From contig CAAGEF010000115.1 of the NCBI GenBank assembly GCA_900768805.1, forward strand, positions 11,407 through 75,406: DNA of 64,000 nt. The letters run 5' to 3'. The notes beneath the pieces are model-generated. The model had not been told where the DNA came from, made no database searches, and was given only the letters and a program-made list of their open reading frames with translations. A program made the translations under genes and the position numbers. Shown here one piece after another: positions 11,138 through 52,902 of this stretch. This DNA comes from Clostridia bacterium. Its GTDB lineage: Bacteria > Bacillota > Clostridia > TANB77 > CAG-508. The stretch's first letter is position 1. The number at the start of each line of letters is the position of its first letter.

Positions 11138-14100
11138 CTATATTTTATTAAAGTATTGATACTTACCAACTTTCAAGTTATTACTTAATTTAGTAAGCTC
11201 TTTTTGAATGTATTCAACACCTGAATCATTCGTCACATTTGGTAAATTAAGACTTACATTCATAACAATAGATGAATTATTGTTATTAATAGTAGTCTTT
11301 GTAGCATTTACACCTTTTCCAAATTCCATGTGATCCATTAAGAAGTTAGGATTAAGTTTTCCCCATTCCCACAAATTCTCACTCATCTCATTCGTAAATA
11401 CCGTATCACCTGCATTGAGTGGAGTAAATACTGCATTTCTGGTAGGTGAAGCAATGATTTCAGCACCTTTTTCTTGTGTCCATGACCATTCATCATTTTC
11501 AACTCTTTTATCACCTTTAGCACGTTGTTTTACACTAAAAGTCTTACTGTTAACAGAGACACCAGGAGCAGTTACTTTAGTAGAATTTAATCTTTCTATA
11601 GATTCTCTTAGTTCATCTACTGCTTTAGTAGAATCTTTTACAGAAGATGTTACATTGTCAAACATTTGAGATACTGCCGGAACAGTAGTAGAAGCAGTAG
11701 CCTTAGTTGCAGTTAAAGCAGTAGTAAGAGATTCACCTTCCGCTTTTGAATCCTTACCACCATTAATAGCTTTAGATGCGTCATAAGTAGATTCTTTAAC
11801 GACACCCATATCAGCACTGATAGAAGTAGCAGTATTATAAGAAGCATCAGTAACTTCACTCATACCACCAACAATAGTTTCAGTAGTATCAGTAGAAGAA
11901 TCCTTTACATCTTGTAAACCGTCGTTTACACCACCAATTGAATCAACTGCACCAGTCAAATCAATAGAAGCTATACTATCAAGCCCAACACCAGTCTTTG
12001 CCAAATAATCGTCAAGCCATTGTATATCACTAACGTTTGCCATAGTAGATAAAGCTTGTCTTACTGAATCAGTTTCCCCTTTAACTGACATCATGTAATT
12101 CAAATATTTATCTTTAAATTCAGCAAAAGTCTTATCTGACATATTAAGAACGTCTTGAGCAGTATATCCTAATTTGTTGAAGACATCTTCCATGTCTTGC
12201 ATCATTTTTGCATTAGTATCTAACTCACTCAATTCTTCCCAACGAGATTTGGTTTCTTCAATAGATTCAATCATCTTTTCGAAATACTCATCAGATTTAT
12301 CCATTAATTCCTGAATAGAATCTTTCTGTTTTTCGATAAGATCGATCTGTTCTTGGATAGCTTCTTTTTGCTTTTCGTAAGCATCAATTTGGTCTTGGAT
12401 AGCCTCTTTCTGCTTTTCAAAAAGTTCTATTTGGTCTTGAAGTTCTTCCTTTTGTTTTTCAAAAAGATCAATTTGTGCTTGAAGTGCATCTTTACCTTCA
12501 TTAAGCAAATCTATCTCTTTTTGAATTGCTGCTACATTAATGTCATTCTGAGCATCACGGACGTTTTCACGAGCAGTAGAAACTTCATCCTCATTGTTTG
12601 TATAAGTCCATTGACCACCTGAAAATGTAGACGTAGTGTTATTGTTAAGAGCCTTATCTAATTCAGACTGAGCTTTTTGTAATGCTATCTGTTTATCACG
12701 TTCATCATTTTCGTCCTGCATTTGGTCAATGATTTTTTGCTTCTCATCAATCAACCTATCATAGTTGTCGATTTCATTCTCGATAGCTTTTATCTGGTCA
12801 TCAATAGCGTCAGTTTGGTCTTCAATTAGCTCAATCTGGTCATCAATAGCGTCAGCCTGGTCTTCGAGGTCATCAATCAAATCGTCAATTGAGTCTATTT
12901 GGTCATTCAAGCCATCTATCTGTTTATCTAAAGCTTTAATTTGTGCATTATAAGATTTGTCAGCAGCATCTTTTAGCTTATTATACTTAGCAATCTGCTT
13001 ATCAATTAAATAAGTAGCACCCTTTATAGCATTATCAAGAGCGTCTTTTGCAATCTCATTTAATTCTTTTTGAGCTTCAGCAGCTTCTTTAGTATATTTT
13101 CCATACTTACCAACTGTCTCGCCTGTGAATCCATAACCTTTAGCTAATCTCTTTAACTGAGAATAATAATCCTTTATAGAAATTTTGCCATCATTATATA
13201 AATCCTCAATTGCGTCATGTTCAGCCTGATAAGCATTTGCCCAATCACCGTGTAAAGTCTTTTCAGCATCAGAAATTTCTTCTTCATACTTTTTGATATG
13301 CTCCGGTGAATCTTTTAAATACTCATTCATGAGAGCTTCTGACTTATTATAAAATTCACGCTCATTAATAAGCTCTTTATCAAGTTCATCTTGGAGAGCA
13401 GAAAGTTTATTTTTATATGCCTCTAACCACTTGTCCTCTTCTTTAGATTTTGAACCAGAACCAGAAGACTTAGGGGTAGAAGGAGCTTTATATTCAACAT
13501 TAGCAATTTCAGTTGTTAAAGTTTTAGCATATTCATTAATTGACTTTATAATCCACTGTCTAGTTTTAGGGTCAGTTTCATTTTCAAGGTCAGTTTTAAA
13601 TTTTTCTAATTTAGCAAGTGCTTCAGTTGCTACACCAGCAGAAGAAGCTAAAGTTAACAATTGGTTTATATCAGAAGAATTATCTATTCTTGCATTATTT
13701 ACCAAAAATTTTCTCATTTCTAAAATTGCTAAAGCTTGTTCTAAATTATCAGCAGACACAGCTTCATTTGCAAAAGCTGTTAATTCCTCTTCTGTCGCAT
13801 TAGCTAAATCAATACCTGCTTCTTCAAGTGCATTAGTATTATTAACAAGTTCACTAAATACAACAATTTCACTATTTGTAACGCCTATACTTTCAAGTAA
13901 TGAATTTACTAATTCAGCATTTTCTTTAGAACATTGTGCAAGACCTGGATTTAAAGCACTGACTACAGAATCTACTAAAGAATTAAAAGCACTTTGAACT
14001 TCTTCTGCACTAGAAGTAGAATCTGATAATACACTAACAAGATCTTCGAAAGAAGAATAGTCAATAGAAATATTTAAATCTGCATTTGAATTTAATGAAT

Positions 14101-16234
14101 CTATAGCAGACTTAATTTCACTAAACATGCTTAAATCAACATTATCTAAAGTAAAACCATCATCAGTAAAAATATTTTGATAAGCGTCTTTTATAGAATC
14201 AAATGCTGGTGATAATTGATTGTCAAGTTGGTCTACAAGGTCAGAAATAGAACGCTTTGACTTAGATGTATTTATACCTTTTATTTCTTCTTGAGCTTTT
14301 TCTACATTATTTAAAGCTGCTTGATAATTATTAGCCGATAAAGTAGCACCATTCAGTTTCTCTTTTTCATTTTGAAGTGCTTGTATAAACTCAGGTGAAT
14401 TTGCAAGTTTTTGTTGTTCTTCATTAAGTTTATCAAACCATTCTGATATCGATTTAATATCAACTTCGGTTATAGCGTCTTCAAAAGTATCTTCAAGATT
14501 ACCACTTATATCTTGTTTGTTAGGAATAAGTTTATTAAACCATTCTGAATTAGCTTTTCTATTAACTTCTGCCATAGAAGTATTAAAGGCGGCATCAAAA
14601 TTATCACTTAATTCTTGCTTATTTGGAGTAAGTTTATCTATCCATTCTGATTTAGTTTTTCTCCCAACTTCTGTTATGGAATCTTCAAAAATAGATTCAA
14701 AATCAGCAGTTAACTCTTGATTACTTGGAGCAAATTTATCAAGAAAATCTATTTTGATTTGTGGATTTATTATACCTAATTTAGTAAGATTATCAATAAG
14801 TTGTTCTATTGACATATTATACTTATTAGCATAAAAATCTAAATCTTCATAAGCCTTCTTTTGTTCATCAGTAGCGGTTTCAGTATCAAAGTTCTTTACA
14901 AAATTCTTTAAGCTTTCATCGCTATTAAATTCTTTAAGCTCGTTAAGGTCATTAGTAATGTCATTCTTCATATCATCTGTGTTAGCTGTAAAATCAATTT
15001 CAAATTCATTAGAATTAACTTCTGCAACTAAATCTTTATTCAAATTTTTGAAGAAATCTACTATACCAGTATCATCACCAGCTTCTTTTATAGCGTCATT
15101 AATTATAGATACATATTCATCTGCTGCATGTTTTGCTTCATCAGAATCAAGTCCATTTTTTTCTACCATTTCATTGTATTCTGTATAAGCGTCAAGAGCT
15201 TCTTTATAATAATCATCAAAAACATTATCTTCTGTTGGTTTTAAAATTTTTTCTTTTAAAACATATGCTTCATAAATTTCTTGATAATTTTCTAATTTTT
15301 CTTGTGTGGTATCAATAGAGTTAGATAATAAATCAAAGAAATTTCCAGTTTCATAATTCTTAGATATTTTTTGTATTTCTAATAATTTATCATATACTTC
15401 TTGAAGATTACCAGTGAGCATCATATCTCTGTCACCAGTTAATTCCACACCAAATTTATTTTGCAATAACTTGTCGAATTCTTCATTCCCGGAAATAGCA
15501 AATGTTACTTTATATTCGCCTTTTTCCATTTGTTCAAGCATCTTATCAAAATTAGAACCAGAAATACTTCTAAGACTATCTGTCCAACCTTCAGATTTAT
15601 TGAACTCATTAATCATAGACTGATATTGAGCATCAGTTAATTTATTAAGTTCTTCTGTTTGTCCTCTAACTGCATCAGTAATAGCATTGATAGCACCTTT
15701 CTCATCGCCATATTTATCAATTAACTCATCTTGAATTGTCATTAATTGTTTACGAGCTTGAGTTACTTCTTCATAAGAAGAAGAGGAGTCATGGATTGTC
15801 AACTGTAATTCGTCAAGTTTTGCTTTGTAAGACTCTATATCATTTTGAGATTCTTTAAAAGCAGAACCAACTTCAGAAGCTTTTTCAGCCAATCTATCAG
15901 AATAAGTAGCAATTTGTTGTATACCATCAACTATTGCACTAAATAAGAACATAGCACCGATATTTAATGCTGTGTTTAATGCTAAAGCAAGACCTTTCCA
16001 TGCTACTTGTTGAGCTTTACCTGCAAGAGTAGCAGTCTTCATTGCTTTTGTTAAATTTTCTTCCCCAATTACTGCACCATTTACAGCTTTCATTAAAGCA
16101 ATTGTTTCTTTTGTAGTTCCTTTACTTGCTTTATCTAGAGCTTCTTGTGCCGAAATTTTCTTTTTTATATATTCATTATATTTATGAATTGCATCTGAAT
16201 CAATATCAGATTTTTCAAAGAAAAATTCTTTAAA
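11138..16234 (-). CDS. tape measure protein, exon 3 (C-terminal ~1700 aa; exact 5' end within 16094-16234 undetermined)
   Basis: Track ORF 11138..16093 (MKAVNG...). Its frame stays open a further 47 codons upstream (FKEFFFEKSDIDSDAIHKYNEYIKKKISAQEALDKASKGTTKETIAL) with no ATG/GTG/TTG and no RBS, which points to exon continuation. Contains the hydrophobic TMP segment KGLALALNTALNIGAMFLFSAIV and long coiled-coil repeats (LIDDLEDQADAIDDQIELIEDQTDAIDDQIKAIE). Confidence 0.55.
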   Translation of the reverse strand, partial: FKEFFFEKSDIDSDAIHKYNEYIKKKISAQEALDKASKGTTKETIALMKAVNGAVIGEENLTKAMKTATLAGKAQQVAWKGLALALNTALNIGAMFLFSAIVDGIQQIATYSDRLAEKASEVGSAFKESQNDIESYKAKLDELQLTIHDSSSSYEEVTQARKQLMTIQDELIDKYGDEKGAINAITDAVRGQTEELNKLTDAQYQSMINEFNKSEGWTDSLRSISGSNFDKMLEQMEKGEYKVTFAISGNEEFDKLLQNKFGVELTGDRDMMLTGNLQEVYDKLLEIQKISKNYETGNFFDLLSNSIDTTQEKLENYQEIYEAYVLKEKILKPTEDNVFDDYYKEALDAYTEYNEMVEKNGLDSDEAKHAADEYVSIINDAIKEAGDDTGIVDFFKNLNKDLVAEVNSNEFEIDFTANTDDMKNDITNDLNELKEFNSDESLKNFVKNFDTETATDEQKKAYEDLDFYANKYNMSIEQLIDNLTKLGIINPQIKIDFLDKFAPSNQELTADFESIFEDSITEVGRKTKSEWIDKLTPNKQELSDNFDAAFNTSMAEVNRKANSEWFNKLIPNKQDISGNLEDTFEDAITEVDIKSISEWFDKLNEEQQKLANSPEFIQALQNEKEKLNGATLSANNYQAALNNVEKAQEEIKGINTSKSKRSISDLVDQLDNQLSPAFDSIKDAYQNIFTDDGFTLDNVDLSMFSEIKSAIDSLNSNADLNISIDYSSFEDLVSVLSDSTSSAEEVQSAFNSLVDSVVSALNPGLAQCSKENAELVNSLLESIGVTNSEIVVFSELVNNTNALEEAGIDLANATEEELTAFANEAVSADNLEQALAILEMRKFLVNNARIDNSSDINQLLTLASSAGVATEALAKLEKFKTDLENETDPKTRQWIIKSINEYAKTLTTEIANVEYKAPSTPKSSGSGSKSKEEDKWLEAYKNKLSALQDELDKELINEREFYNKSEALMNEYLKDSPEHIKKYEEEISDAEKTLHGDWANAYQAEHDAIEDLYNDGKISIKDYYSQLKRLAKGYGFTGETVGKYGKYTKEAAEAQKELNEIAKDALDNAIKGATYLIDKQIAKYNKLKDAADKSYNAQIKALDKQIDGLNDQIDSIDDLIDDLEDQADAIDDQIELIEDQTDAIDDQIKAIENEIDNYDRLIDEKQKIIDQMQDENDERDKQIALQKAQSELDKALNNNTTSTFSGGQWTYTNNEDEVSTARENVRDAQNDINVAAIQKEIDLLNEGKDALQAQIDLFEKQKEELQDQIELFEKQKEAIQDQIDAYEKQKEAIQEQIDLIEKQKDSIQELMDKSDEYFEKMIESIEETKSRWEELSELDTNAKMMQDMEDVFNKLGYTAQDVLNMSDKTFAEFKDKYLNYMMSVKGETDSVRQALSTMANVSDIQWLDDYLAKTGVGLDSIASIDLTGAVDSIGGVNDGLQDVKDSSTDTTETIVGGMSEVTDASYNTATSISADMGVVKESTYDASKAINGGKDSKAEGESLTTALTATKATASTTVPAVSQMFDNVTSSVKDSTKAVDELRESIERLNSTKVTAPGVSVNSKTFSVKQRAKGDKRVENDEWSWTQEKGAEIIASPTRNAVFTPLNAGDTVFTNEMSENLWEWGKLNPNFLMDHMEFGKGVNATKTTINNNNSSIVMNVSLNLPNVTNDSGVEYIQKELTKLSNNLKVGKYQYFNKI

Positions 16235-16355
16235 ATTAAAATTTTTTAAATCTTTAAATTCATTTTTAATTTCATCTATAGACTTTCCAAATAATCCAAT
16301 AGACTCAATCGCTCCTGTAGATTCATTTGTAATTGTTTGGAATATCGAACTTTAT

Positions 16356-16384
16356 TTGACATATACTTTGTGGAATAGTATATT
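16356..16384 (+). promoter_or_regulatory. sigma-A-type promoter for zinc-ribbon gene (TTGACA-N17-TATATT)
   Basis: TTGACA at 16356-61, 17-nt spacer, TATATT at 16379-84. RBS AAGGAGAG at 16404-11, ATG at 16420. Confidence 0.6.
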
Positions 16385-16419
16385 ATGTTAATAAAGAATC
16401 TATAAGGAGAGAATAAATA

Positions 16420-16764
16420 ATGTTAATTAATAGAGATGTTTATGAATGTAATAAATGTAAAAAATCATATTTTTTTGATACTGATAAACCTTATTCTAAA
16501 ATATGTCCTGAATGTGGAGAAGAATTAACCTTTGAATTAAATTACGATTATGATACTGAAAAAGAGCCACCATCAGTATACGACCCAACAGAAGATCCCA
16601 ATAGCCCATATTATATTCCAAAAGTAGAATGTCCATATTGTCATTCTACAAAAACAGAAAAGATAGGAGTTATAAAACGTTCTTTTTCATTTGGATTACT
16701 TGGCTTTGGAAGTAGTAAGGTGGGTAAAAATTACCATTGTAAAGTATGTGGTTCTGATTTCTAA
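16420..16764 (+). CDS. double zinc-ribbon protein (114 aa), function unknown
   Basis: Four CxxC pairs (C10/C13...C29/C32; C71/C74...C107/C110). Strong promoter and RBS. Encoded antisense to the TMP gene inside the intron-like insertion. Confidence 0.55.
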   Translation: MLINRDVYECNKCKKSYFFDTDKPYSKICPECGEELTFELNYDYDTEKEPPSVYDPTEDPNSPYYIPKVECPYCHSTKTEKIGVIKRSFSFGLLGFGSSKVGKNYHCKVCGSDF

Positions 16765-16936
16765 TATTAAATTCTATATTAGTTTTAAGTTTTATTGACA
16801 ATAAAACCAATATCCAGTAACATTATATTGTGCTACCTAAAGTGGTAGGCGGTTAGTCCTTTTGCGTAGAATTATCTACAGAACAATCACGAAAGGGGTT
16901 GTTTGAATGATTACACAAGAAAGGATAGTTTGAATA

Positions 16937-17029
16937 ATGTACATAACATTAGATCAGATAATCCAAATAGGAATTTTCCTAGTTGGATTTGCTACTCTGA
17001 TAATACTAATTGTAAAAGATACAAAATAA
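16937..17029 (+). CDS. type I toxin-like small hydrophobic peptide 1 (30 aa), bsrE/bsrG/Hol-Tox-like
   Basis: MYITLDQIIQIGIFLVGFATLIILIVKDTK: single TM helix with a Lys-rich tail. Own promoter TTGACA(16795)-N17-TAACAT. Structured 5'UTR motif GTGCTACCTAAAGTGGTAGGCGGTTAGTCC at 16830-59. Terminator directly after the stop. Confidence 0.5.
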   Translation: MYITLDQIIQIGIFLVGFATLIILIVKDTK

Positions 17030-17067
17030 AAACACCGCCAACTGCCCAAGGTTCCGGTGTTTTTATT
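17030..17067. terminator. bidirectional rho-independent terminator (module 1)
   Basis: AACACCG...CGGUGUU stem followed by a U-run on the plus strand and an A/U-rich 5' flank. Read on the minus strand the same hairpin is followed by a U-run, so it can serve both toxin mRNA and antisense RNA. Confidence 0.55.
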
Positions 17068-17119
17068 AAAAACTCATAAACTAAGGACTAACCGCTTGCT
17101 TAACGGTAGCACTTTTTAT
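17030..17119 (-). ncRNA. antisense sRNA 1 (putative type I antitoxin), convergent to toxin 1
   Basis: Perfect minus-strand promoter TTGACG(17154-49)-N17-TATAAT(17131-26). Predicted ~90-nt transcript covers the reverse complement of motif B (17085-17112) and ends at the shared terminator. Confidence 0.45.
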
Positions 17120-17125
17120 GACTTT

Positions 17126-17154
17126 ATTATAATCTAAATAATATAAAACGTCAA
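17126..17154 (-). promoter_or_regulatory. antisense promoter 1 (TTGACG-N17-TATAAT)
   Basis: Reverse complement of plus-strand 17126-31 attata and 17149-54 cgtcaa, with a 17-nt spacer. Confidence 0.55.
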
Positions 17155-17290
17155 TATATTATTATTTTTTCTTCGCTGGACTTATGTACCATAATTTGTT
17201 AATATTATATAGTGCTATCTAAAGCGGTAGGCGGTTAACCCTCACTCAGAGGGATTATTGTCTGTCCCTCTATGAAAAGGAGGGATGAAT

Positions 17291-17380
17291 ATGGTTACAT
17301 ATGATAACTTGATACAATTTTGTATTCTAATCGTAGCAATCATTAGTCTCGTTTACGAGATTTTTCGCAATAAAAAATAA
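17291..17380 (+). CDS. type I toxin-like small hydrophobic peptide 2 (29 aa)
   Basis: MVTYDNLIQFCILIVAIISLVYEIFRNKK. Promoter TGGACT(17177)-N17-TAATAT. 5'UTR motif GTGCTATCTAAAGCGGTAGGCGGTTAACCC. SD GGAGGG is flanked by two CCCTC anti-SD copies (CCCTCactcaGAGGG...CCCTCtatgaaaaGGAGGGatg). Confidence 0.5.
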   Translation: MVTYDNLIQFCILIVAIISLVYEIFRNKK

Positions 17381-17467
17381 TCGCCCACAGTCTGACAAAC
17401 TAAGCGATTATTTTTAATCAAAAAGTTATAAGGGCTAACCACTTGCTATATGGATAGCACTTTTTAT
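17377..17467 (-). ncRNA. antisense sRNA 2 (putative antitoxin)
   Basis: Promoter TTGACG(17502-497)-N17-TATAAT(17479-74) on the minus strand. Terminator stem AATCGC...GCGATT plus T-run at 17377-17416. Overlaps motif B2 (17432-60). Confidence 0.45.
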
Positions 17468-17473
17468 AAGTCT

Positions 17474-17502
17474 ATTATATTCTTTCTATCACAAATCGTC
17501 AA
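17474..17502 (-). promoter_or_regulatory. antisense promoter 2 (TTGACG-N17-TATAAT)
   Basis: Perfect consensus hexamers with a 17-nt spacer. Confidence 0.55.
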
Positions 17503-17675
17503 TATCATTTTAATTCCAACTGGACATATTTTACATAACTTGTTATTATTATACCATGAGGTTATGCTACACAACGGTAGACGGTTGCTTTCGCTAGAAT
17601 ATATTTTATTATTCTAAGAACTTCCATTTTGAAAGGAGGTTTTAGCATGGAAAATATACTAAGGAGAAAGCTTTT

Positions 17676-17756
17676 ATGTATGTGACATGGACTGATTTGA
17701 TTCAGTTCTGCATATTAATAGTTGCAATAATTGCGCTATTTAGACATAAAAAATAA
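17676..17756 (+). CDS. type I toxin-like small hydrophobic peptide 3 (26 aa)
   Basis: MYVTWTDLIQFCILIVAIIALFRHKK. Promoter TGGACA(17521)-N17-TATTAT. RBS AAGGAG. Preceded by a 12-codon overlapping leader ORF (17647-17685, MENILRRKLLCM) that may couple translation. Confidence 0.5.
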   Translation: MYVTWTDLIQFCILIVAIIALFRHKK

Positions 17757-17834
17757 CCGCCCTCTGTCTAGCAAACTTGGCGGTTATTTTTAACGTAACT
17801 GTCAACTAGGCAACCGTTTATCGGTATAACCTCT
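17750..17834 (-). ncRNA. antisense sRNA 3 (putative antitoxin)
   Basis: Promoter TTGACG(17869-64)-N17-TATAAT(17846-41). Terminator ATAACCGCC...GGCGGTTAT plus T-run at 17749-17792. Motif B3 at 17808-32. Confidence 0.45.
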
Positions 17835-17840
17835 ATTCAC

Positions 17841-17869
17841 ATTATATTACATTTAAAAAATTACGTCAA
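17841..17869 (-). promoter_or_regulatory. antisense promoter 3 (TTGACG-N17-TATAAT)
   Basis: Perfect consensus hexamers with a 17-nt spacer. Confidence 0.55.
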
Positions 17870-18300
17870 CATTTATTATTGATTCTGCCATAATTTATTA
17901 TTATTCAAAAATGAATAAAATTTCTATTTTGTTCCTATCTTCCACACCATGAAAATACGATAGGAGAGTATTTATATTTTACTGTCATGTCAGTTTTAAT
18001 GCATTAAAAGTATACAAATATATGTATAACTATTAGAGCAGTATCATAACTCATTACAAATTATGACTTACTTCTAACTTATAGTCAGTTAATGCTCCGA
18101 CTCGTTTCGAGCGCATCTTAGAGAAGCATCGTTTCATATAACTTCTCCCCAGGGTTGTCGCTTCTGTGAGGGCTTTTCATTAATATTATTTTATTAATGA
18201 ACTATCCCTGCGGATTGTTTCCTTTCCCGCATATTGCCTGTGTACGTTTAACTTATTGTATTTCAATAAGCGTGATATAAAAAACTTATACATAAACTTA

Positions 18301-19143
18301 TATGTATAATAAGGTCTTATCACCGACGGCATATTCTTTTGAGAAGAGGACGTATTTACCTCGTCTACCGTCACCTTTTAAACTCTTAAAGATTCCAAAT
18401 ATTCCACTACCACCAATTAGAGCAGTATTTAATACACCTATATTATTAACAACATCTAAAATACTTTTAGCAAAATCAATAAAGAAATTAATAATTTCAC
18501 GATTATCATTTCCAACCCATAATTGTTCCCATGCATTTTTTAAAGAATTTATATGTGCTTCAATTGTTTCCAATTGCTTTTCTAATTCTTCTTGTGCTGA
18601 ACCTTCTGAATCTAATGCTGATTCATACACTGATTTTAACAATTCAGGTTGTTGAAGAATAGCTGCTGCAACGTTTGAACGATTTTTACCTGCTAAAACT
18701 TCTAGAAGTGCTTGTCCACGATTCGTTCCAGCTTTTTTATCAGTTTCTAATATTTCTTGATATACTTCGCTAATACTTCTTAATATTTCATAAGTTGATT
18801 TATAATTACCATTATCATTTAAAATACTTACACCTTTAAAATCATTAGACTCAACAGCAGTAAAATTACGAACTGTTTGATCAAGTTTGGATTTAGTTTG
18901 TACTACAAAATCATCAACATCTTCACCTAAACTTGCTAACTCATCTTTTGCTTCTTCTGTGCCAAGAATACGAAGAGAAATCATTTTTAATCCTGTACCC
19001 ACAGATTCAGCGTCTTGTAAAACTGAATTTCCTGCTGTTACAAGTGCCGCAGCTTCATAAATATTATTACCAGCTACTTTTAAAGTTGCAGCCGATCTTT
19101 GTAAAGCACTTGCTAATTCATCGGTCGAAATTGCATAATTATT
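18301..19143 (-). CDS. tape measure protein, exon 2 (TMP core region)
   Basis: Begins at the 3' splice site with NNYAISTDELASALQRSAATLKVAGNNIYEAAALVTAGNSVLQD...GTGLKMISLRILG, matching the TP901/TIGR01760-type TMP core, then the first hydrophobic segment. The track ORF's first 60 codons are intron read-through. 3' limit (5'SS of intron 2) approximate. Confidence 0.55.
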
Positions 19144-20920
19144 CAATCTGTTACTTTCAGTCTTTTGACTTACTGACCTATTAAATAGGCGATATGTCAT
19201 TTCTGGCATATTCTCACATTTCATAAAAAGATTATATTGTGAGTTCAGACTGTATATTACAACCTCTTGTCTTCTAATTAAATAGAAGAGTAGGTTGGAT
19301 AACTTCACTATATATGTTACCATATAAAGCCCGCAGTCGTTACGGATAATGTAATATTATTATTTTGGATGGGGATTATCCTACTTTCTTTTTTATTAAA
19401 TGTCTATATTCACTAATTTCCATATCTTGATATGGAATTAATAATTCTTTACCTAAAAATAAACTACCTTCTTTATAATTCCAATTAAAAGAATGATAGT
19501 TTTCTAAAAAACCATTATTTTTAATATATTTTAATATTAAAGCTTCACATAAATCAGGAAATTCATTTATATCTTTTTCCCATAAATATATTAATATTTT
19601 CATGTGTTAAAATATAAGTCTTTTTTTGCTTATCTTTAGTTATTGTTCTACTTTGTAATTCATTTATAGAATGTTTATTTTCATTATATTTTAATGGAGA
19701 ACTATGCTAATAATCACCCATTACTTCTATAATCAGATTGAATTTTGGCGAATAATTATCAACAGCGTAATATTTTATTATGTATTCTCGTTCAAATTTT
19801 ATATTATTTTTATTTAATATATCATTTACTTTTAATTGTATGCCAGTTTCTAATCTATTTGCTTTTCTAGAATTTTTTAGAATATTTATTCTAGCTTTTT
19901 CTTTTTGTTCTTCCGTAAATATGTAATTATGCATTATAGATTTTTCACCTACATAATATTTACTGCGATATTTCCAATAACATTCTTGACTGCAAAAATT
20001 ATGACTATCTCCATATGTATTTTTCTTATTATAATCATATGGTATTATTTTTATATTTTTCCACAATTAGTACATGTTGTCTCTATACGATTATAAAATT
20101 GACTATTTTCACCATGTCCTATTTTATTGGTTTTATCATTCCAATAACATTCTAAACTACAATATAAATATTTATGTATTTTATATACATTAGGTGGATT
20201 TATTACTTCTTTTCCACAATGTTCACATTTTGTCTTTACTAAGCACTTCTTATTACCAATTTTCAAAGTACAAAATAAATTTACAGTATCTTCTAATGAA
20301 CGATTTATTTTATTAGCTAAATTATTAATATAAATTGATTCCTCATATAATAAAAAATATAATGTTATTAAGATTTCACTTTCCGAAAAACCTTCTACTT
20401 TTGGTATACCATTGTGGCGTTTTATCCATTCACATACATTACATTTAGTTATATCTCCATTTTTATATACTTTTTTATAATACATATGCATTTTTGGAAC
20501 TTTGTGTCCACAAGTTTTACAATATAATAAACCTCTATAATTTTCAAATTCTTCTTTTGTCATAATAACATCTCCTGAAATTTATAATTATCTTGTTTTT
20601 TGTCTCATATAAAAATAAAAATCCAATGCTTCATGCAATTCATTGGATTCTTCAAATAACCAATATTCATTTGTGTTTTCTAAAATACTTTCTCTTTCAA
20701 AACCAAGAGAATATAAATATTTAGACAATCTTTTATTTTTTATTTTATATTTATTGTTCATACTAATATTTCCCCATATTTAGTATTAATAATTATATAA
20801 TATTACATTCTTTCCTCGGTTTTACCCATCTCTGGCTTTTAACCGATATAGTTATCTACTAGGATATTAATAATGATTAAAAATATCCCCATACATTACT
20901 GTATGTTTAGGCATAATTTT
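19144..20920 (-). other. group I intron 1 in tape measure gene (1777 nt)
   Basis: Exon 1 ends GAAGUAGGU and the intron begins AAAAUUAU-GCCUA. This gives P1 UAGGU/GCCUA with a U.G pair at the splice site, and P10 AUUAU with exon-2 AUAAUU. Then P2 CAUACA-GUAA-UGUAUG, P2.1 GGAUAUU...AAUAUCC, P4-P5 UCGGUU-AAAAG-CCA-GAGA-UGG-GUAA-AACCGA. ORFs sit in the P6 region. R-like ACGACUGCG and S-like AAUAUACAGUCU give P7 GACUG/CAGUC. P8 CUUCUA...UAGAAG, P9 CUCACA...UGUGAG, P9.1 CCUAUUUAAUAGG. Omega G at 19144. Confidence 0.65.
19376..20563 (-). pseudogene. intron-encoded DUF559/Vsr-like (PD-(D/E)xK) homing-endonuclease gene, fragmented into three ORFs
   Basis: 170-aa Cys-rich N-terminal ORF (20051..20563). 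A 119-aa ORF (19707..20066) ends ...GIQLKVNDILNKNNIKFEREYIIKYYAVDNYSPKFNLIIEVMGDY then TAG. It continues in frame HSSPLKYNENKHS..., then after a frameshift the 75-aa ORF (19376..19603) begins KILIYLWEKDINEFPDLCEALILKYI. Together these match the DUF559 motifs (VDF...IEVDG..H ... VLRFWE.dv). A frameshift also separates the 170- and 119-aa ORFs. Confidence 0.5.
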
Positions 20921-23900
20921 ACCTACTTCATTTAAAACGTCATTAATTTGCGATTTTTCTAAATCGTTATAAGCAGAACTCATTGCAACTAAAGCATCAG
21001 TAGCTTCATTTATACTTTCAAATTCAGATACTTGAAATAAAGTATTTGCATCTTGTGCTGATTTTTTAGCATCGTTTAATGATTCTCCAAGTCGCATAAA
21101 ATCAGCCGTACTACTTTGTATTGTACTAGCAGTAGTTCCTACACTATTTGCTAATTCAAAGCTTTCTTTTTGAAAATTTTTCAAAGTTTGAATACTATAT
21201 TCACTTACTTTATTCATTTCAGCAAGATTATTGTCATATTCTTTAATAATTTCAAAAACTTCTCGGCCATATCTTATTATATCATACATACTAAGATACA
21301 TAGATATAAAACTAGTAGTAATACTTTTAGTCCTTTTAGCTATAGAAGTAAAGAAAGAATCACCAGTTTTACCGGATTTTTGAAGCTGATAATTAAGATC
21401 AGCAAGTTCTTCATTTAATTCTCTAAATTGCTTTTCTGTACCTTTAGTATCAATTAACAATTGATATTTTTTTTCTAATGCATAAAATAATTGTTTTAAA
21501 CTAGAAGGCATAGCAGTATTGTCAGCAAGAGTCTTACGAATCTTTGACATTGTATCTCTAATTTCTTCTGGTTTTGCTAACTGGAATGCAAAATTCTTAG
21601 TTTGTGAATTGACTTCATTATATAATTTATCAATTTCTTGTTCTAATTTTTTTACATAATTTAGTTTTGTTTCATCAATATTTATTAAATCATAACTTTG
21701 CAATTCTTTGATTTTTGATTCTAATAAATCCATTTTTTCATAATATGCGTCAACATATTTGAAATCTTTTTTATTAGTGTAAAGTCTTTCATATTTTTTA
21801 TACATATTATTTGCATAATTTTTTACAGATTGCTCATAAGCTTTAGATTCACCATTTTGGAAAACTTGTCTTATACTTTCTAACTCTGCTTTAATATTAG
21901 AATTACCTAAATTTACAGTAGCATATTTTCCCTTCGCCAAATAAGCTTCTTCCCATTCCTTTTCAAGCTGTTCAAGCAAAATTTTTTCTTGAGGAATTAA
22001 AGAATCTTCATTACTTTTTAATATATAATAATCTTTTGACTGTTTAAGAAGTGTTTTATAAGCTTTTATAGCATCTTGGTTATGCTCAGTAGCAGTTAAA
22101 TCTTTATAAGAGCCAAGATTCATCTGTACTTCTTCTTGTTTAGCAGTATATTCTTTTTGTGTTTGTAATTGTTTTTCAGTTAAAACAGTAGTAGTTTTTA
22201 AAACTTGATTATATTTTTCTCTATTATTAATAAGTTCTTGAAGATTTTTTGTCTCTTGAGGTGTTAACGAGGTGAATTGAGATTTTGCCTGTAATTCTTG
22301 ATAAGACTTTTCAGTTTTTATTAAACCTTTATAAGCTTCAGAAATTTCATCAATTTTCTTTGTAGAATTATTAGTAGAAATTTCAGCGTTTCTCTTAGAA
22401 TCATTTTTGCTTGCTATAATATTGTCAATTTTTTCTTGATACTTATTTTTTATAGCAAATAACTCATTACTTTGCTTTTGTCTATCAATAATATCCTGAT
22501 AAACTTCCAATTCTTTTTTAGAAGCATTATAATTATTAATATGCTGTTTTTCTTGAGCTTTTAAAGTTGCAATTTCTTCTGAATTTTTTTGAGGATCTAA
22601 TTTTGAAATAGCAAGTTTTATTTGACAAATCTTTTCATATTCTTCTTTTTGCTTTTTTAGAAGATTAGTAGAAATTTCAGCGTTTTCTTTTTGTTTCCTT
22701 TTAGCATTTTCAGCATAAGCTTCTTGTTCAGCAAGTTTAATACTTTCTTTTAAAGAAGCATTATAAGCTTCTCTTCTAGCTTCATATTCAGCAATTAACC
22801 GTAGTTCATATTCTTGATTTCGATTATCATTAACTAATCCTTTTTCATTACGATATTCTTTTTCATCGCTAATTAACTCTTCATAGGAAGCAATCAACAT
22901 GTTATTATATGCTATATCTTCTTTTTGAGTTTTAGAATTAGTTTCTTTAGCTTTAGCATTTTTTTCTTTTAAAGAATAAATTTCTGAGATATATTTTTTT
23001 TCAATATTATAAGATTCTTTAGTTAATTTATCTTTTTCTCTTTTTTCTTCATTAGCAAAACGTTTGGCCTGTTCAGAACGTTCCTTTGCCATTTTTTTCT
23101 CAATATCTTCATAGCGAGTGGAATCTATATGACTTGAGAAAGAAGTATTATTTTTTAAATCATAATTAGTAGTCCAAGTAGTATTTTTTAATAAACCATC
23201 TAATTCCTGTTGTTCTTTTAAAACAGTTTTTACTAAATTATCTTGACTATCATAAAATTCCGTTATTTCTTTTATTGTAGACCCTTGTGCAGTTAAGTCA
23301 GATTCTAATTGTGCTGTTGCTTTTTCTAAAGATTCTGTTCTAGCAATAAGTTGAGCAGTAGTCATACTATTATCTGCTTTTGTAACATTACGAGTTTTAT
23401 GCTTTATTGCTTCTTTAGGGTCATCACTAATATTAGTAGCTGCTTCAGCAATTTTTCCACGATTTATTTCAACATTAGGTACTTTGATTTTATTATTTAA
23501 ATCTATTCCAGAAAATTTTGCGATATTATCTAATTGTTCTTTAATTATTTTTAAAGCAGAAATCAATTTACCAAGATAATGTGTTTCATTAGGAATAATT
23601 TTAGTAACATTAGCTTCTTCATTCTTAAATGCTTCTGTTTTTTCATTGACAGCATTAGTTATAGAGTCAACAGACTGTTTTATGGCTTCAAGTCCCTTAA
23701 CTTCATTACCTGTATCAGTAGTTTTACCATTTAGGACTTCATCAACTGTTAATCCTTTTTCAATAAAAGAAGAAATTTCTTTAAGCTGATTTATGACTTC
23801 TGTTAAATCTGTTTTACCAAACAAATCTTTTAATGGATCAGAATTAGAAGCAGTTTTTAATTCATTAAAGGCTTTTGTAACTTGTCCCATTGCTGCGGAA

Positions 23901-25408
23901 GCAGAAGTCCAATATTTTTTATCAATACTATTATATAAGACATCTTTTCCGTTATATTGAAGTTTAGCTTCTTTTCGCATATTTTCAATAAACTTTTGAT
24001 ATGCCTTTAATTTACCCATCATAGTATCATATTGATTAATATCAAAATCAAAAAAGTTTGTATTAATCATAGAACCGCCAGCACCTGAAAGTTTTAATTC
24101 ATCAAACAATTTTTGATATGCTTGTAATGCTAAAGAAATTTTAGATTGTATTTTTGCTTCAATTTCTTTATTCGAACCAACTTCAATATTCATATTTAAA
24201 TTAATACCTTTAAGACTATTACTTAAATCTGAAATAGCAGTATTAATTTTATCAATCGTATTTATAATTGGAGTAAGAGAATCATTAGTATTTCCGACTT
24301 CCACAAAAGCAGTTCGTATTTTTATAATTTCTTCGTGTAAATCTTTAAGAATTACTATAAGTGCATTAAGTTCTTTACCATTTTCACCGTTAGCAGTAGG
24401 AGTATAAGTATGGATAGCTTTTTGTAATTGTTCCTGAACAAATTCAATTTGATCAGTATATTTATGATAATCTTGAATACTATCTTTCATCCATTGTGTA
24501 TAGGATTCTTTATTATTACCTTTAGCTATTTCATTCTGATAATAAGTAGCACCCCATAATGCATCTTTCTGGTTTTGTTTTAATTCATCTAAGGCCTTAG
24601 AATATTTTTGAATATCTTCTAACTCATCATCCAAATCAATTTGCCAATCATAAACTTCACCTTTATTATGTTCTGCTTTTAACTTAGCTTCCATTTCTGC
24701 TTCAGTTAAAGTTTTAAATTGCTCAGTGACTTCTTCTACTGCTTTCGCTTGAGCATCATAAGCTCCGGTAGTAGAAGTAATAGAAGTAGTAAAAGTATTT
24801 TGAATATCTATTAAACTAGTTAATGTTTCTACGGTACTTTCCAATCCTTTAAAAGGTTTCGTTATTTCTGAGAGGTCAGGATATAATTTTTGTATATTCT
24901 TTAGTACATCAAAGATTTCTTTAAATTGACTAACATCTAAATTATAATTTTTAAAATTTGGTAATTCTCTCATTTGAGATACTAAGTCACTTATTTCTTG
25001 ACTTATTTCTGATATAGAGTTACTCTTACCAGTTAATGCTTCTAACGCATTTGCAAAAATTAAAACTTTTTTTGCAGATTTAGAATCTGCCAAATTATTA
25101 TCATTAATAATTCCAGCATTTCTTTCTTTAGCATATTGTTCCCATGCATTTTTTAATCTGTTAACTGCTTTTTCTTCAGTGGTAAAATATGAAGTCTTAG
25201 AATAATTTTTGTTTTTATTTATACATTTTTCATAAGATTCTAAAGCCTCTGTTAATCCTTCAATATCTTCTTTAGCCTTATAAATAGAAGAATCAGTTTT
25301 TATTTTTAATGTGGTTTCTGACATTGATTCAGAACCTTTTAATACTTCTCCAATTGCTTGAGCAATCTCTTTAGCAGTAGCACCACTTGTATTTATTCGT
25401 TCAGCCAT
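20921..25408 (-). CDS. tape measure protein, exon 1 (N-terminal ~1496 aa)
   Basis: Follows the chaperone-like genes. Long coiled-coil-rich protein. Its last residues ...INEATDALVAMSSAYNDLEKSQINDVLNEVG are the start of the TMP core motif, which continues exactly in exon 2 (NNYAIS...). The 9 codons after GGU (KIMPKHTVMYGDIFNHY*) are intron sequence. Confidence 0.65.
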
Positions 25409-28361: not shown

Positions 28362-29384
28362 TTATAAATCTTCAAGTCCTTTTACTTCTGAACCTTTAAT
28401 ACCATCTTTTGTAAAGAATTTACCAAAAGAATCAGAAGCTTCATTGTCATTGTAGATGTTTAGCATTTCTGAGCTACTCCACCCGAAATATTCTTGAATA
28501 ACATCTGCTGGTAAACCAATTCGAAATAGTCTAGAGCATAATTGATGTCTAAGAGCATGGAAATAAAAATCTCTACCTAAAATTTTTGAAATAGTATTGG
28601 TAAAGCTATTTAAAGTACTTACTTTTAAAACTTCATCAGTATTTTGTTTAACAAATAGATACTCATTCTTTAATCCTAATCCTTTTCTCTTATTCATCCA
28701 TAAATCAAAATATTTTTTAAAATCTAATAGTGTATATTTAGTTAAGGCTTTTCCTGCTGAACCTCTTCCTTTAGTTTTTATTTTCTCCGGCGTTTTATAT
28801 AAAGCAGCATCAGTCATAATATTAGAATCATCAAAATATGAAACTTTATATCTTAATAATTCTGATTTTCTAGCTCCACCAAAAGCAGCAAGAGCAAAAG
28901 CACAAGCACATTGCAATTTTCCTTGTTCTACTAAAGTATCAAGTATCATTTGTACTTCTTCATCAGTAATAATAGTTTTATCTCTAACTACTTGTTTTAC
29001 AGGAGATTCTACTTTTCTTATAATTGGTTTATAATTTTTAATTTCATCGTCTAAAATATTCTCAATGTAATTGCTCATAGAAGATAGAGCTGATTTTACA
29101 CGAGCTAGTCTATTAGAACTCCAATTCAAATCTGACATTGCATATTTTTGAAATTTTGCAATTTCTCTTTTTGTTAATTCAACAAAATATTTGTTATCAT
29201 TATTTTCTAAGTTCCAACAGAAAAATATGTCCAAATCTGAATTATATCCATTAATAGTTCCTTTACTACGATCAATAGAAATAAGGTAATCTAAAAAATC
29301 ATTTTTTAATTCAATATTTTTCTTATTAATTTTTTTTAATTTGTCTGGAGTAGTAATATTATTATAAATAGTAGTTCTTCCCAT
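28362..29384 (-). CDS. int: tyrosine recombinase / phage integrase
   Basis: C-terminal catalytic region ...FYFHALRHQLCSRLFRIGLPADVIQEYFGWSSSEMLNIYND (R..HxxR...Y). N-terminal SAM-like core-binding domain. Confidence 0.75.
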   Translation of the reverse strand: MGRTTIYNNITTPDKLKKINKKNIELKNDFLDYLISIDRSKGTINGYNSDLDIFFCWNLENNDNKYFVELTKREIAKFQKYAMSDLNWSSNRLARVKSALSSMSNYIENILDDEIKNYKPIIRKVESPVKQVVRDKTIITDEEVQMILDTLVEQGKLQCACAFALAAFGGARKSELLRYKVSYFDDSNIMTDAALYKTPEKIKTKGRGSAGKALTKYTLLDFKKYFDLWMNKRKGLGLKNEYLFVKQNTDEVLKVSTLNSFTNTISKILGRDFYFHALRHQLCSRLFRIGLPADVIQEYFGWSSSEMLNIYNDNEASDSFGKFFTKDGIKGSEVKGLEDL

Positions 29385-30417: not shown

Positions 30418-31701
30418 TTATGTAGTTATTACTTTATTCACATTTTCTGGTTTTAAAATATTACCAGCTAAATATGACTCTATTGTAAAAGGAATATCTA
30501 TTCCCAATACTTTTCTTTTATTATTTATATATTCTTCTAATTGTTCTGGTGTGTTATTAAGTGTCCCATATGTATTATGAAAAGAACCAGGAATTGAATG
30601 GTTATGACATTCTTTACATAATAAAATAGCATTATTATCTTCGTACCTTAAATCTTTATAAGTAGAGAAATTATATATGTGATGCATTTCTTTTATAATA
30701 TTCTTAGTCTTTCCACAACATTGACATGTATAAAAACATTTTTTATAATTTCGTTTTATCCATCTTTTATATTCAAGAGAATTTCTTTCTTTAACTCGTT
30801 CAGGTGTAATTCCACCTTTCCAATTATGATTGTTTTCTTTTGATATTTTACTTAACCATAAGCATCCACAAGATTGAATTTTTTCACTTTTTAAATGACT
30901 TGATAATATACTTTTATGTTTTGTACCACAATCACAATCACAAAACCAATATGTTCCTTGTCCTTGTTCTGTTCTTTCTTTATCTAATTCTTTAACAGTA
31001 AGATAATTAAACTTTTTACCAACTAAATTTTCAATGTTATAATGAGTTTCTTTTACGCATTTGTGACAATTAAAATTATATGTAACTGAATTATCTATTT
31101 CTCTTAAATAATCTTCATGCGAATTATTTTTACATTTCCACCATACTTTTTGTTTAGAATGAGAAGTATATTCATAGGGACTTTTTTTATTTTTATCTGA
31201 CCATATTGTTACAACTTCTGGATACAAATATCCTAATGAATTAGTTAAACATACACGTTTACCAGAACAATAAGGACAATTATGCGAATGACTAAAATTT
31301 GAAGCTAGTAAGTCATAATCTGGATGTGTATTATTATTTTGACATTTTAGCCAAATTTTTTTCTTTGATGAACCTTTTGATATTTCAAAAGGTGATATTT
31401 TATTTTTTTCTGACCAAATCGTTTTTAAATAAGTTTCTCCATAATTATCTATTATATATTGTCCAATAGAATTGCATTCTGGACATTCTATTTTAGTTCT
31501 TAAACTAGTTATATTATTCAAATTTTTTTGATAAGATTTATGAATATCTCTGTTACATTTAAACCAATATTTTAAGTTTGAACAATATGAAACTTGTTCA
31601 GGCTTTTCATTATTTAAATTATAATCCCATAATTTTAAATAATCTTGTTTATTATTTTCTAAACACCATTCATAAAAACTCTTATTTATTTTATTTTTCA
31701 T
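30418..31701 (-). CDS. free-standing HNH homing endonuclease with repeated Zn-ribbon DNA-binding modules
   Basis: C-terminal HHIYNFSTYKDLRYEDNNAILLCKECHNHSIP is an HNH motif. Three W..C..GH.W-type repeats (KYWFKCNRDIH, KIWLKCQNNNTH, KVWWKCKNNSH). The true start is probably M at 31701 (RBS GGAGG); the track's upstream extension is spurious. Confidence 0.6.
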   Translation of the reverse strand: MKNKINKSFYEWCLENNKQDYLKLWDYNLNNEKPEQVSYCSNLKYWFKCNRDIHKSYQKNLNNITSLRTKIECPECNSIGQYIIDNYGETYLKTIWSEKNKISPFEISKGSSKKKIWLKCQNNNTHPDYDLLASNFSHSHNCPYCSGKRVCLTNSLGYLYPEVVTIWSDKNKKSPYEYTSHSKQKVWWKCKNNSHEDYLREIDNSVTYNFNCHKCVKETHYNIENLVGKKFNYLTVKELDKERTEQGQGTYWFCDCDCGTKHKSILSSHLKSEKIQSCGCLWLSKISKENNHNWKGGITPERVKERNSLEYKRWIKRNYKKCFYTCQCCGKTKNIIKEMHHIYNFSTYKDLRYEDNNAILLCKECHNHSIPGSFHNTYGTLNNTPEQLEEYINNKRKVLGIDIPFTIESYLAGNILKPENVNKVITT

Positions 31702-31744
31702 ATATCCTCCGTAGATATTTATATTATTTCCGATACTTAAATAA

Positions 31745-31785
31745 AAATAGAAGAGATGTTCGGAATACATCTCTTCTCAATAAGA
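31745..31785 (-). terminator. rho-independent terminator after major tail gene region
   Basis: GAGAAGAGAUGU-AUUCCGAAC-AUCUCUUCU followed by a U-run on the minus strand. Confidence 0.55.
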
Positions 31786-48536: not shown

Positions 48537-48648
48537 TTATCATTTGCTCACTTTCTTGCTCACAAATCAATATAAAAAAACAGAAGAGTGCAGTGAGCAT
48601 TGCACATGATGAGGCTCATGACTTCCTCATTTCTTCTGTTCTATAAAA

Positions 48649-48721: not shown

Positions 48722-48727
48722 AAATAT

Positions 48728-50265: not shown

Positions 50266-50333
50266 TTTCCTTTTTCTCCTATAAAAATAGAAGAGTGTGG
50301 TTATATCTCACTCTTCTAAACGAACTTTATTAA

Positions 50334-52880: not shown

Positions 52881-52902
52881 AAATTTTATCCTTATAATAA
52901 AT

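Follow-up and report, generated by a model that had tools for sequence, protein, structure and literature searches.

The DNA considered here is a stretch of 64,000 nucleotides from a Clostridia bacterium (assembly GCA_900768805.1, contig CAAGEF010000115.1), referred to over its full length as the window, and the system in question is a row of three candidate type I toxin-antitoxin (TA) modules. The window has a GC content of 27% and encodes portal, terminase, tyrosine recombinase and tape-measure genes, which bears out an earlier note, made by reading the letters, that placed the modules in a phage genome. With the exception of one island, the long open reading frames (ORFs; at least 300 amino acids) are all on the minus strand. 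This sole plus-strand island, at 16350-17900, interrupts the gene for the tape-measure protein (TMP), and within it, at 16790-17880, reading of the sequence reveals three diverged plus-strand units of approximately 350 bp each. In each unit a promoter is followed by motif A, a Shine-Dalgarno (SD) sequence, a hydrophobic ORF of 26-30 codons with a lysine tail, a hairpin at the stop codon, motif B and a convergent minus-strand promoter (Table 1). The earlier note had described the same parts in the same tandem arrangement, and the description stands: the direct-repeat families returned by a repeat finder have start-to-start spacings of 344-382 bp, and the mean column identity of the three aligned units is 68%.

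As the note had stated, motif B is approximately the reverse complement of motif A. The repeat finder returned a perfect 13-nt A/B inverted repeat (I19), and the calculated A/B duplex energies range from -32 to -45 kcal/mol. The description of motif A as common to the units applies to units 1 and 2 and fails for the sequence of unit 3, where motif A reads GGTTAT... and motif B has co-changed to ATAACC with retention of the helix; compensatory change on both strands of this helix implies selection. The minus-strand TTGACG-N17-TATAAT promoter is present in all three units, as claimed. The hairpins were missed by the terminator scan because their loops are 17-19 nt. In unit 2, the SD GGAGG (17279-17283) is paired with GTCCCTC (17264-17270) in the minimum free energy (MFE) fold, and the start codon is most likely the ATG at 17291, 7 nt after GGAGG, since a start at 17285 would be too near the SD. 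Units 1 and 3 have different leaders. Short upstream ORFs with their own SD, absent from the earlier note, are found in units 1 and 3 and not in unit 2, which suggests translational coupling or leader-peptide control in those two units.

Table 1. Features of the three units and of the interrupted tape-measure gene, in window coordinates. P1, helix formed by motifs A and B; sRNA, small RNA; dG, free energy of the A:B duplex in kcal/mol.
Feature	Position	Strand	Remarks
Tape-measure exon C	11138..16345	-	open ~85 codons upstream of first start codon, no SD
Probable group I intron 2 of TMP	16346..18366	-	~2.0 kb; holds Zn-ribbon gene and three TA units antisense
Zn-ribbon protein gene	16420..16764	+	114 aa, double Zn-ribbon; promoter TTGACA-N17-TATATT 16356-16384, beside 3' splice site
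Unit 1 toxin promoter TTGACA-N17-TAACAT	16795..16823	+	promoter scan 10/12; -10 ends 6 nt before motif A
Unit 1 motif A (P1 5' strand), GTGCTACC-N6-GGTAGGCGGTTAGTCCTT	16830..16861	+	predicted mRNA 5' end
Unit 1 upstream ORF MITQERIV	16907..16933	+	own SD-like AAAGGGG; stops 3 nt before toxin ATG; putative role
Toxin ORF 1, MYITLDQIIQIGIFLVGFATLIILIVKDTK	16937..17029	+	30 aa; Hol_Tox 12.3 bits
Unit 1 hairpin over stop codon	17025..17067, arms 17025-37/17055-67		I17, 13 bp, 100%; A-run and T-run; predicted sRNA1 terminator, bsrG SL3 equivalent
Unit 1 motif B (P1 3' strand)	17082..17112	+	dG -44.7 with A; MFE fold closes P1
Predicted antitoxin sRNA1	17022..17119	-	~98 nt; predicted ends ~7 nt after -10 to U-tract past hairpin
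sRNA1 promoter TTGACG-N17-TATAAT	17126..17154	-	11/12
Unit 2 toxin promoter TGGACT-N17-TAATAT, TGn extension	17177..17205	+	read from sequence; aligned to units 1 and 3
Unit 2 motif A (P1 5' strand)	17212..17243	+	3' end is CCCTC anti-SD copy
Toxin ORF 2, MVTYDNLIQFCILIVAIISLVYEIFRNKK	17291..17380	+	29 aa; Hol_Tox 30.5 bits
Unit 2 stop-codon hairpin / sRNA2 terminator	17370..17418, arms 17370-84/17404-18		I14
Unit 2 motif B (P1 3' strand)	17430..17460	+	dG -35.7
Predicted antitoxin sRNA2	17366..17467	-	~102 nt; predicted from promoter and hairpin
sRNA2 promoter TTGACG-N17-TATAAT	17474..17502	-	11/12
Unit 3 toxin promoter TGGACA-N17-TATTAT, TG-extended	17521..17549	+	promoter scan 10/12
Unit 3 motif A	17558..17588	+	diverged sequence, still pairs with own motif B
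Unit 3 upstream ORF	17647..17685	+	12 codons, strong SD, overlaps toxin start; read from sequence
Toxin ORF 3, MYVTWTDLIQFCILIVAIIALFRHKK	17676..17756	+	26 aa; Hol_Tox 18.2 bits
Unit 3 stop-codon hairpin / sRNA3 terminator	17744..17796, arms 17744-61/17779-96		I4
Unit 3 motif B	17808..17833	+	
Predicted antitoxin sRNA3	17741..17834	-	~94 nt; predicted
sRNA3 promoter TTGACG-N17-TATAAT	17841..17869	-	11/12
Tape-measure exon B, core domain	18367..19143	-	

The units belong to a larger family. Matches to motif A were collected with the IUPAC pattern GCTAYC-N4-8-GGTAGRCGGTT, which was run on IMG/VR and, in a stricter form, on one genome per species; the family counts below (145, 104 and 70 modules) are drawn from among the matches listed in these two scans. 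A module was defined by an SD and a hydrophobic ORF of 20-45 amino acids with a K/R tail located 35-150 nt downstream on the same strand, and such an ORF follows the motif in 89 of 102 genome contexts and 54 of 111 viral contexts among the matches listed. Family modules occur in at least 120 genomes as well as in viral contigs, and the genome matches listed are almost all from Clostridia; Lachnospiraceae (Blautia, Roseburia, Oribacterium, Butyrivibrio) come first among the taxa listed, followed by Acutalibacteraceae and some Selenomonadales. The A:B duplex is -33 kcal/mol or stronger in 140 of 145 modules among the matches listed, with motif B mostly 40-57 nt past the stop codon, and the architecture described in the earlier note recurs in these independent modules far beyond chance. 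Predicted sequestration of the SD by a CCCTC copy, which the note took to be peculiar to unit 2, is so within the window and is the rule across the wider family. The 5' motif of the family, GCTACC-N-GGTAGGCGGTTAG, defines a separate, mainly clostridial lineage. No Rfam family was matched by the window units or by 12 family loci (membership of a known structured RNA family was one way in which the earlier note had considered that it could be wrong), and the Rfam BsrG model found no match on those 12 loci. The family has no Rfam model and no published description of it was found, and it appears to be uncatalogued.

The pairing of motifs A and B was probed using an alignment (A4) of 70 non-redundant modules that includes the three window units. 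RNAalifold predicts from this alignment both the A:B helix and the stop-codon hairpin, and the latter covaries across the family at alignment columns 308-314/346-352. In the A:B helix, 97.3% of the cells are paired and both partners have changed in 17 of the 31 pairs; these figures are not attained in any of 500 shuffles, and pairing in slid controls is 32-54%. Two helix positions are G.U in 53/70 and 56/70 sequences and G-C in most others. On the opposite strand these G.U pairs would be A.C mismatches, and only pyrimidines are found opposite the G residues. These strand-specific G.U pairs, together with the covariation, indicate that the helix is selected in a plus-strand RNA that spans A and B, and therefore that the toxin mRNA continues past the stop-codon hairpin to include motif B. 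The hairpin is accordingly at most a leaky terminator for the mRNA and serves mainly the antisense RNA, such that the shared bidirectional terminator of the earlier note holds for the antisense direction and is much reduced in the other. The antisense RNA resembles A because it is the complement of B; as it lacks the GGUAG with which A folds on itself, its 5' end should stay single-stranded.

The positions of the promoters are consistent with these transcripts. A minus-strand promoter scoring at least 9/12 lies within 60 nt beyond B in 94 of 104 modules (control strand, 10/104), with its -10 element ending 8-13 nt beyond B, and a plus-strand promoter scoring at least 9/12 lies upstream of A in 78/104 (control strand, 19/104), with its -10 element ending 5-8 nt before A. 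The conservation of these positions predicts a start of the mRNA at A and of the antisense RNA at the complement of B. In GC-rich relatives the hairpin has a U-tract, derived from the lysine codons, on the minus strand only, and a canonical plus-strand terminator lies past the antisense promoter.

All three window mRNAs close the A:B helix in their MFE folds. When the antisense:mRNA pairing proposed in the earlier note was computed, cognate duplexes gave -171 to -174 kcal/mol (-173.5 for mRNA1) and non-cognate duplexes -52 to -67 kcal/mol, and the latter values make some cross-talk possible. With A:B formed the SD has a predicted accessibility of 0.21, which falls to 0.09 once B is blocked; across 104 modules, blocking B decreased SD accessibility in 59 and increased it in 6 (Wilcoxon p = 6e-13).

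The encoded peptides were compared with known toxin families. Peptide 2 matches Pfam PF16935 (Hol_Tox) with 30.5 bits (E = 3.2e-7) over profile positions 1-33 of 34, above the gathering score of 23.3. Peptides 1 and 3 are 80% and 34% identical to peptide 2, respectively, and as its paralogues they would belong to Hol_Tox by descent and not by score. The assignment to Hol-Tox in the earlier note is therefore upheld directly for peptide 2, whereas the scan that it proposed leaves peptides 1 and 3 below the cut-off. None of the three peptides matched the Fst models in Pfam, and NCBIfam gave only weak sub-threshold matches to the type I toxin PepG1 and to ComI. No match was found for peptide 2 in a tblastn search against phages, and PHROGs returned nothing for the peptides. 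Genes annotated as 'holin-like toxin' belong to the TxpA family, which is represented in Clostridiales and also in a staphylococcal phage (Fozo et al. 2010, PMC2887945). In the TxpA-family member EF3263 of Enterococcus, an RNA of ~110 nt is antisense to the 3' UTR (untranslated region) (Fozo et al. 2010, PMC2887945). Judged by their sequences, the three peptides are presumably toxic and are likely to be single-helix membrane toxins of the TxpA/BsrG (Hol-Tox) kind.

Taken together, these results make it very probable that each of the three units is a type I TA module of the bsrG/SR4 type. The bsrG/TxpA (Hol-Tox) reading of the earlier note is thus sustained by the score of peptide 2 and by the promoters, hairpin and covarying A:B helix, which are kept in approximately 100 non-identical relatives. 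In the mechanism that we propose, a constitutive sigma-A-type promoter would produce a toxin mRNA of ~260-290 nt extending from motif A through motif B, and the convergent promoter beyond B would produce an antisense RNA of ~95-100 nt that covers the complement of B, of the spacer and of the stop-codon hairpin. The antisense RNA would end at this hairpin, with a U-tract supplied by the lysine codons of the toxin. In the free mRNA, A and B would pair as a long 5'-3' helix (P1) that closes the molecule, probably stabilizes it, and occupies the CCCUC at the 3' end of A. First contact with the antisense RNA is probably loop-to-loop at the stop-codon hairpin. Pairing of the antisense RNA with B would then expel A, whereupon a local hairpin in A would form and CCCUC would re-pair within the 5' UTR, sequestering the SD more tightly, and the long RNA duplex would be a substrate for RNase III. 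Once the supply of antisense RNA stops, the peptide would be made and would damage the membrane. The transcript ends, the involvement of RNase III and the SD switch are presumed here from the predicted structures, as is the splicing discussed below; the biological role would be maintenance of the prophage or element, or abortive infection or exclusion.

Several observations weigh against this assignment. Peptides 1 and 3 score below the Hol_Tox cut-off (12.3 and 18.2 bits vs 23.3), and only 14 of the 70 non-redundant family peptides match Hol_Tox at E<=0.01, which implies that the RNA scaffold is common to several peptide types. The SD of unit 1 is weak (AAAGGA), and the CCCTC copies are absent from units 1 and 3. 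The Rfam BsrG model (RF01412) gives 12.6 bits (E = 6.3) for unit 2 only, and its gathering score is 55. The stop-codon hairpins of the window also have a plus-strand T-run; as T-runs occur on both sides of the hairpin in this AT-rich sequence, part of the mRNA may stop short of B and so be without P1. No separate plus-strand terminator was found after B in the window, which makes the mRNA 3' ends uncertain. Some of the same features could mean that one or more units are decayed paralogues that no longer work. The low peptide scores and the weak SD of unit 1 are in line with this, as are the degenerate motif A and inserted leader of unit 3 and, in both units 1 and 3, the missing CCCTC copies and the insertions that carry an extra SD/ATG. 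Yet in all three units the ORF is intact, the antisense promoter scores 11/12, the hairpin is present and the P1 helix is compensated, and decay is considered unlikely.

Several additional observations were made on the family. In many members the 5' UTR has another hairpin, CAGAGGGACTGTGACCCTCTG, and behind it a conserved box, ATTACATAGAAAT (A4 columns ~55-100); both are absent from the window units. In the L087 and L141 modules (L numbers denote individual loci found in the searches) the stop-codon hairpin and motif B are tandemly duplicated behind one toxin ORF, and several genomes (L209, L220, L224, L226) have two modules within 0.4-7 kb; these duplicated parts and paired modules indicate that tandem amplification is common in the family. 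Four loci with a terminase 77% identical to that of the window (L070, L073, L120, L135) have a single module, MVTYANLFAYTIVIFTILTFAFNNNNKRK, near packaging/recombinase genes and not in a TMP intron. The presence of a module elsewhere in these closest phage relatives indicates that modules move within the phage group.

The gene that contains the units is a mosaic of three exons. The TMP gene (11138-25408, minus strand) has a first exon at 25408-20921, followed by exons B and C of Table 1, and comprises approximately 3,500 codons; when ORFs are called automatically, it is broken up into pieces of 1513, 341 and 1651 amino acids. The protein is related to the TMPs of the SPbeta-like phage Sundance and of Enterocloster phages; a near-identity search of 16000-18400 against INPHARED gave no match. 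Alignment of the TMP of phage PMBT24 covers 21256-20882 and resumes at 19143-18373, and the aligned pieces are contiguous in the relatives L004 and L005.

The second interruption, at 16346-18366, is probably a group I intron. At 18367 the 5' exon terminates in ...GACGGU, which pairs with one half of the guide, GCCGUC (18330-18325), to form helix P1 of the intron with a U.G pair at its end; the other half of the guide, GAAUAU (18336-18331), is complementary to AUAUUC, the bases with which exon C begins (P10), and the last intron base, 16346, is the omega-G. A 5' splice site after 18373 had been considered and was replaced by 18367 on finding this P1/P10 guide sequence. The ligated frame reads ...KSLKGDG/IFQTITNES, where the slash marks the junction, and corresponds to ...ARSGKG/IITQFLDW in the uninterrupted TMP of L025. 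The sequence AGTWYG/ATATTY is kept at the 3' splice site in five relatives, none of which has an SD there. A core P3-P9 can be placed at ~18262-18090, with P3, P3', P7 with its bulged A, P7', P8, J8/7 AAGAU and P9 identified by eye only, and the 491-nt 5' part of the intron has a fold z-score of -5.1. In L010 a group I intron that Rfam confirms lies elsewhere in the TMP gene and has the same signature of a downstream exon with no start codon.

Two results count against the placing of the modules in a probable intron. The Rfam model Intron_gpI (RF00028) gives only a partial P4-P6 match of 19.7 bits (E = 0.01 in a 541-nt search), and its gathering score is 50. Additionally, the three antisense terminators (~17067-17022, ~17418-17366 and ~17796-17741, minus strand) face the same way as TMP transcription, and such sense-oriented terminators should attenuate exon C unless late transcription is antiterminated. 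The Rfam searches (E<=10 on the region, gathering score on the window, and 24 related loci) returned only tRNAs, chance matches, the full group I intron of L010 and the partial match in the window. An exact pattern from the P4 region of the intron had 0 matches in IMG/VR, and blastn of the intron core against its counterparts in relatives detected no similarity.

The 2-kb region could instead be an intergenic 'moron' island between separate TMP-N and TMP-C genes, in which case the TA cluster would be ordinary accessory cargo. The low Intron_gpI score and the lack of any match in the counterparts of L004 or L267-L290 would fit such an island, as would the size of the region with its promoters, three minus-strand terminators and variable cargo, and several relatives have an ATG exactly at the TMP-C start (MIFTT...). 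However, exon C is open for ~85 codons before its first start codon and has no SD; the ATG of the relatives has no SD either and is TCG, ACG or TTG in the window, L267 and L061, while the G before ATATTY is conserved. Furthermore, the guide pairs with both exons, the ligated frame matches the intron-less L025, and a TMP intron is confirmed in L010. An intergenic island is accordingly thought improbable.

The first interruption (intron 1, 19144-20920, minus strand) shows similar signals, with GUAGGU at the 5' junction, the guide AUUAU-GCCUA and an omega-G at 19144; Rfam found no core. From their sequences, both TMP interruptions are probable group I introns. Intron 1 contains same-strand ORFs of 170, 119 and 75 amino acids (20051-20563, 19707-20066 and 19376-19603) with no Pfam or PHROGs match.

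The Zn-ribbon gene and the three TA units behind it form a cassette antisense to TMP within the probable intron 2, and the Zn-ribbon gene is its conserved first gene. Homologues of 95-185 amino acids are antisense to TMP and abut the TMP-C 5' end in at least 20 of 24 IMG/VR loci (e.g., L004 11844-12131; L267-L290), and the TA motif was found in none of these 24 Zn-ribbon loci. No nuclease or other functional domain was found in the Zn-ribbon protein, and neither an exact-protein look-up nor PHROGs gave a match; it could be a new intron-associated factor. A peptide hidden Markov model detected no toxin homologues among the small ORFs of 23 tape-measure relatives (L004-L026). Three other viral contigs do carry family modules that are antisense to TMP and placed in its intervening region: in L061 the Zn-ribbon gene is followed by the module, which is the order of the window, and in L100 and L127 the module is 1.1-1.4 kb past exon B. 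The intervening regions of further relatives hold PemK/MazF-like, GmrSD_N and Bro-N/ANT cargo as well as homing-endonuclease-like ORFs (NUMOD1, DUF723, treble-clef zinc finger); the regions concerned are L008 12321-13136, L007 11085-12194, L013 11458-12369, L010 8663-9790 and L006 8802-9962. The variety of this cargo indicates that the TMP region is a cargo hot spot in which TA modules are recurrent.

The location of the cluster, antisense inside the TMP intervening sequence, was not part of the earlier note and is the only unusual thing about it. It is possible, and no more than tentatively proposed, that a working group I intron in an essential late gene truly carries the TA modules as its cargo, with the two systems coupled; no paper linking group I introns with type I TA loci was found. 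Were they coupled, the tape-measure pre-mRNA and the excised intron would be sense to the antitoxins, and transcription of the late genes would supply all three antitoxin sequences in cis and run head-on into that of the toxins. Toxin would then be made only when the late genes are silent, as in lysogeny, in early infection or upon shut-off by a competitor. The result would be an intron-borne addiction or exclusion device that senses the state of transcription and helps an intron without a homing endonuclease to persist, and the recurrence of modules at this site in L061, L100 and L127 would reflect selection.

With the same RNA architecture, the peptides might instead be effectors of the phage life cycle (holin-like lysis timing, superinfection exclusion or abortive infection) that are gated by the antisense RNAs and by late TMP transcription. 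The Hol_Tox family was named for its resemblance to holins, the modules lie in a late gene whose transcription would presumably collide with that of the toxins and carry all three antitoxin sequences, and the same region holds PemK-like, GmrSD and Bro/ANT cargo in relatives. A one-helix, lysine-tailed peptide of 26-30 amino acids under antisense control is nevertheless the standard format of a type I toxin, no lysis genes adjoin the modules and the family is found mostly in bacterial genomes. A role of this kind, which differs from the TA explanation in biology only and not in mechanism, seems rather unlikely. That A and B are the terminal inverted repeats of an element resembling a miniature inverted-repeat transposable element, or symmetric protein-binding sites, and do not form an RNA helix was rejected as extremely improbable on the strand bias of the G.U pairs: inverted repeats of ~30 bp do flank the units, which occur in tandem and at varied places in related phages, but the G.U pairs, found at two helix positions in 53-56 of 70 sequences, would be mismatched in DNA, both promoters are conserved and lie outside the repeats, neither a transposase nor a target-site duplication was seen, and the equivalent helix has been probed experimentally in bsrG mRNA (PMC3834814).

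Elsewhere in the window, a tyrosine recombinase/integrase-like gene and a gene for a 450-residue HNH endonuclease (28362-29384 and 30418-31770, minus strand) lie within the structural block. A recombinase likewise precedes the tape-measure gene in Sundance and Thrax4. ARAGORN identifies five minus-strand tRNA genes at 48648-53760 (Pro-TGG, Lys-TTT, Glu-TTC, Tyr-GTA and Asn-GTT), of which four are found by Rfam at gathering score and the Tyr tRNA is missed.

The modules of the window are ordinary members of a large clostridial family whose proposed mechanism, the P1 switch, is already known. The family is of interest as it is easy to annotate by its conserved 5' motif and is spread over at least 120 genomes, almost all of gut and rumen Clostridia, and many phages. 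Moreover, its covariation independently supports a mechanism that had been established biochemically for a single Bacillus locus. The window also presents selfish or defensive cargo nested antisense in a probable self-splicing intron of a phage structural gene, an arrangement that recurs. Questions are raised as to how late transcription passes three terminators, whether intron RNA acts as an antitoxin, and whether TA modules stabilize introns or prophages. As the TMP genes of this phage group are mosaic, automated annotation splits them and misses both the small toxins and the introns.

The closest known system is bsrG/SR4 of the Bacillus subtilis prophage SPbeta (Jahn and Brantl 2012, 2013). 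In bsrG mRNA, helix P1 is formed by nt 1-35 and nt 232-262; the SD is part of a 4-bp helix, and SL3 includes the stop codon (Jahn and Brantl 2013, PMC3834814). The SR4 terminator loop makes first contact with the bsrG loop next to the stop codon, and in the complex nt 1-33 are single-stranded, the SD helix is extended from 4 to 8 bp and translation is blocked (Jahn and Brantl 2013, PMC3834814). The units described here share with bsrG/SR4 a small predicted membrane toxin of the TxpA/BsrG family, an A:B helix equivalent to P1, a stop-codon hairpin equivalent to SL3, a predicted convergent antisense RNA complementary to the 3' part of the mRNA including the 3' strand of P1, and carriage by an SPbeta-like large siphophage or prophage. 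The earlier note had regarded the fold-back of A on B and the A-like copy in the antisense RNA as unusual; they are instead the known P1 of bsrG and the part of SR4 that displaces its 5' strand (PMC3834814). In contrast to SR4, which is 183 nt long and has its own separate terminator, the antisense RNA is predicted to be ~95-100 nt, to lack the non-complementary 5' stem-loop and to end at the complement of the toxin stop-codon hairpin. Unlike bsrG, the window units have no dedicated mRNA terminator after P1 and do not match the Rfam BsrG model.

Similarities to other type I systems are more limited. The txpA/RatA locus of the B. subtilis skin element and E. faecalis EF3263 encode toxins of the same superfamily and have an antisense RNA over the 3' UTR. 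TxpA is 59 amino acids long, longer than the peptides here, and no RNA sequence similarity to txpA/RatA or EF3263 was detected. The par locus of pAD1 (fst RNA I/RNA II) likewise has convergent transcripts and one shared bidirectional terminator hairpin, and to this extent the fst-type likeness drawn in the earlier note is valid. However, par pairs via 5' direct repeats that overlap the translation start, and these are absent here: the flanking repeats are inverted, so that the antisense RNA resembles the 5' end of the mRNA and not its complement. An fst reading was rejected on this basis, and no Fst peptide was matched.

The setting of the modules can be compared with that of known introns. 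Group I introns interrupt TMP at several alternative positions in prophages of the Bacillus cereus group (Tourasse and Kolsto 2008, PMC2504315). The same mosaic pattern is seen in the window and its relatives. The group I introns known from phages carry either no cargo or a homing endonuclease on the same strand. The cargo of the probable intron described here, for which no earlier report of a like arrangement was found, differs from these in its antisense orientation, in having promoters of its own and in being made up of a Zn-ribbon gene and three TA modules.

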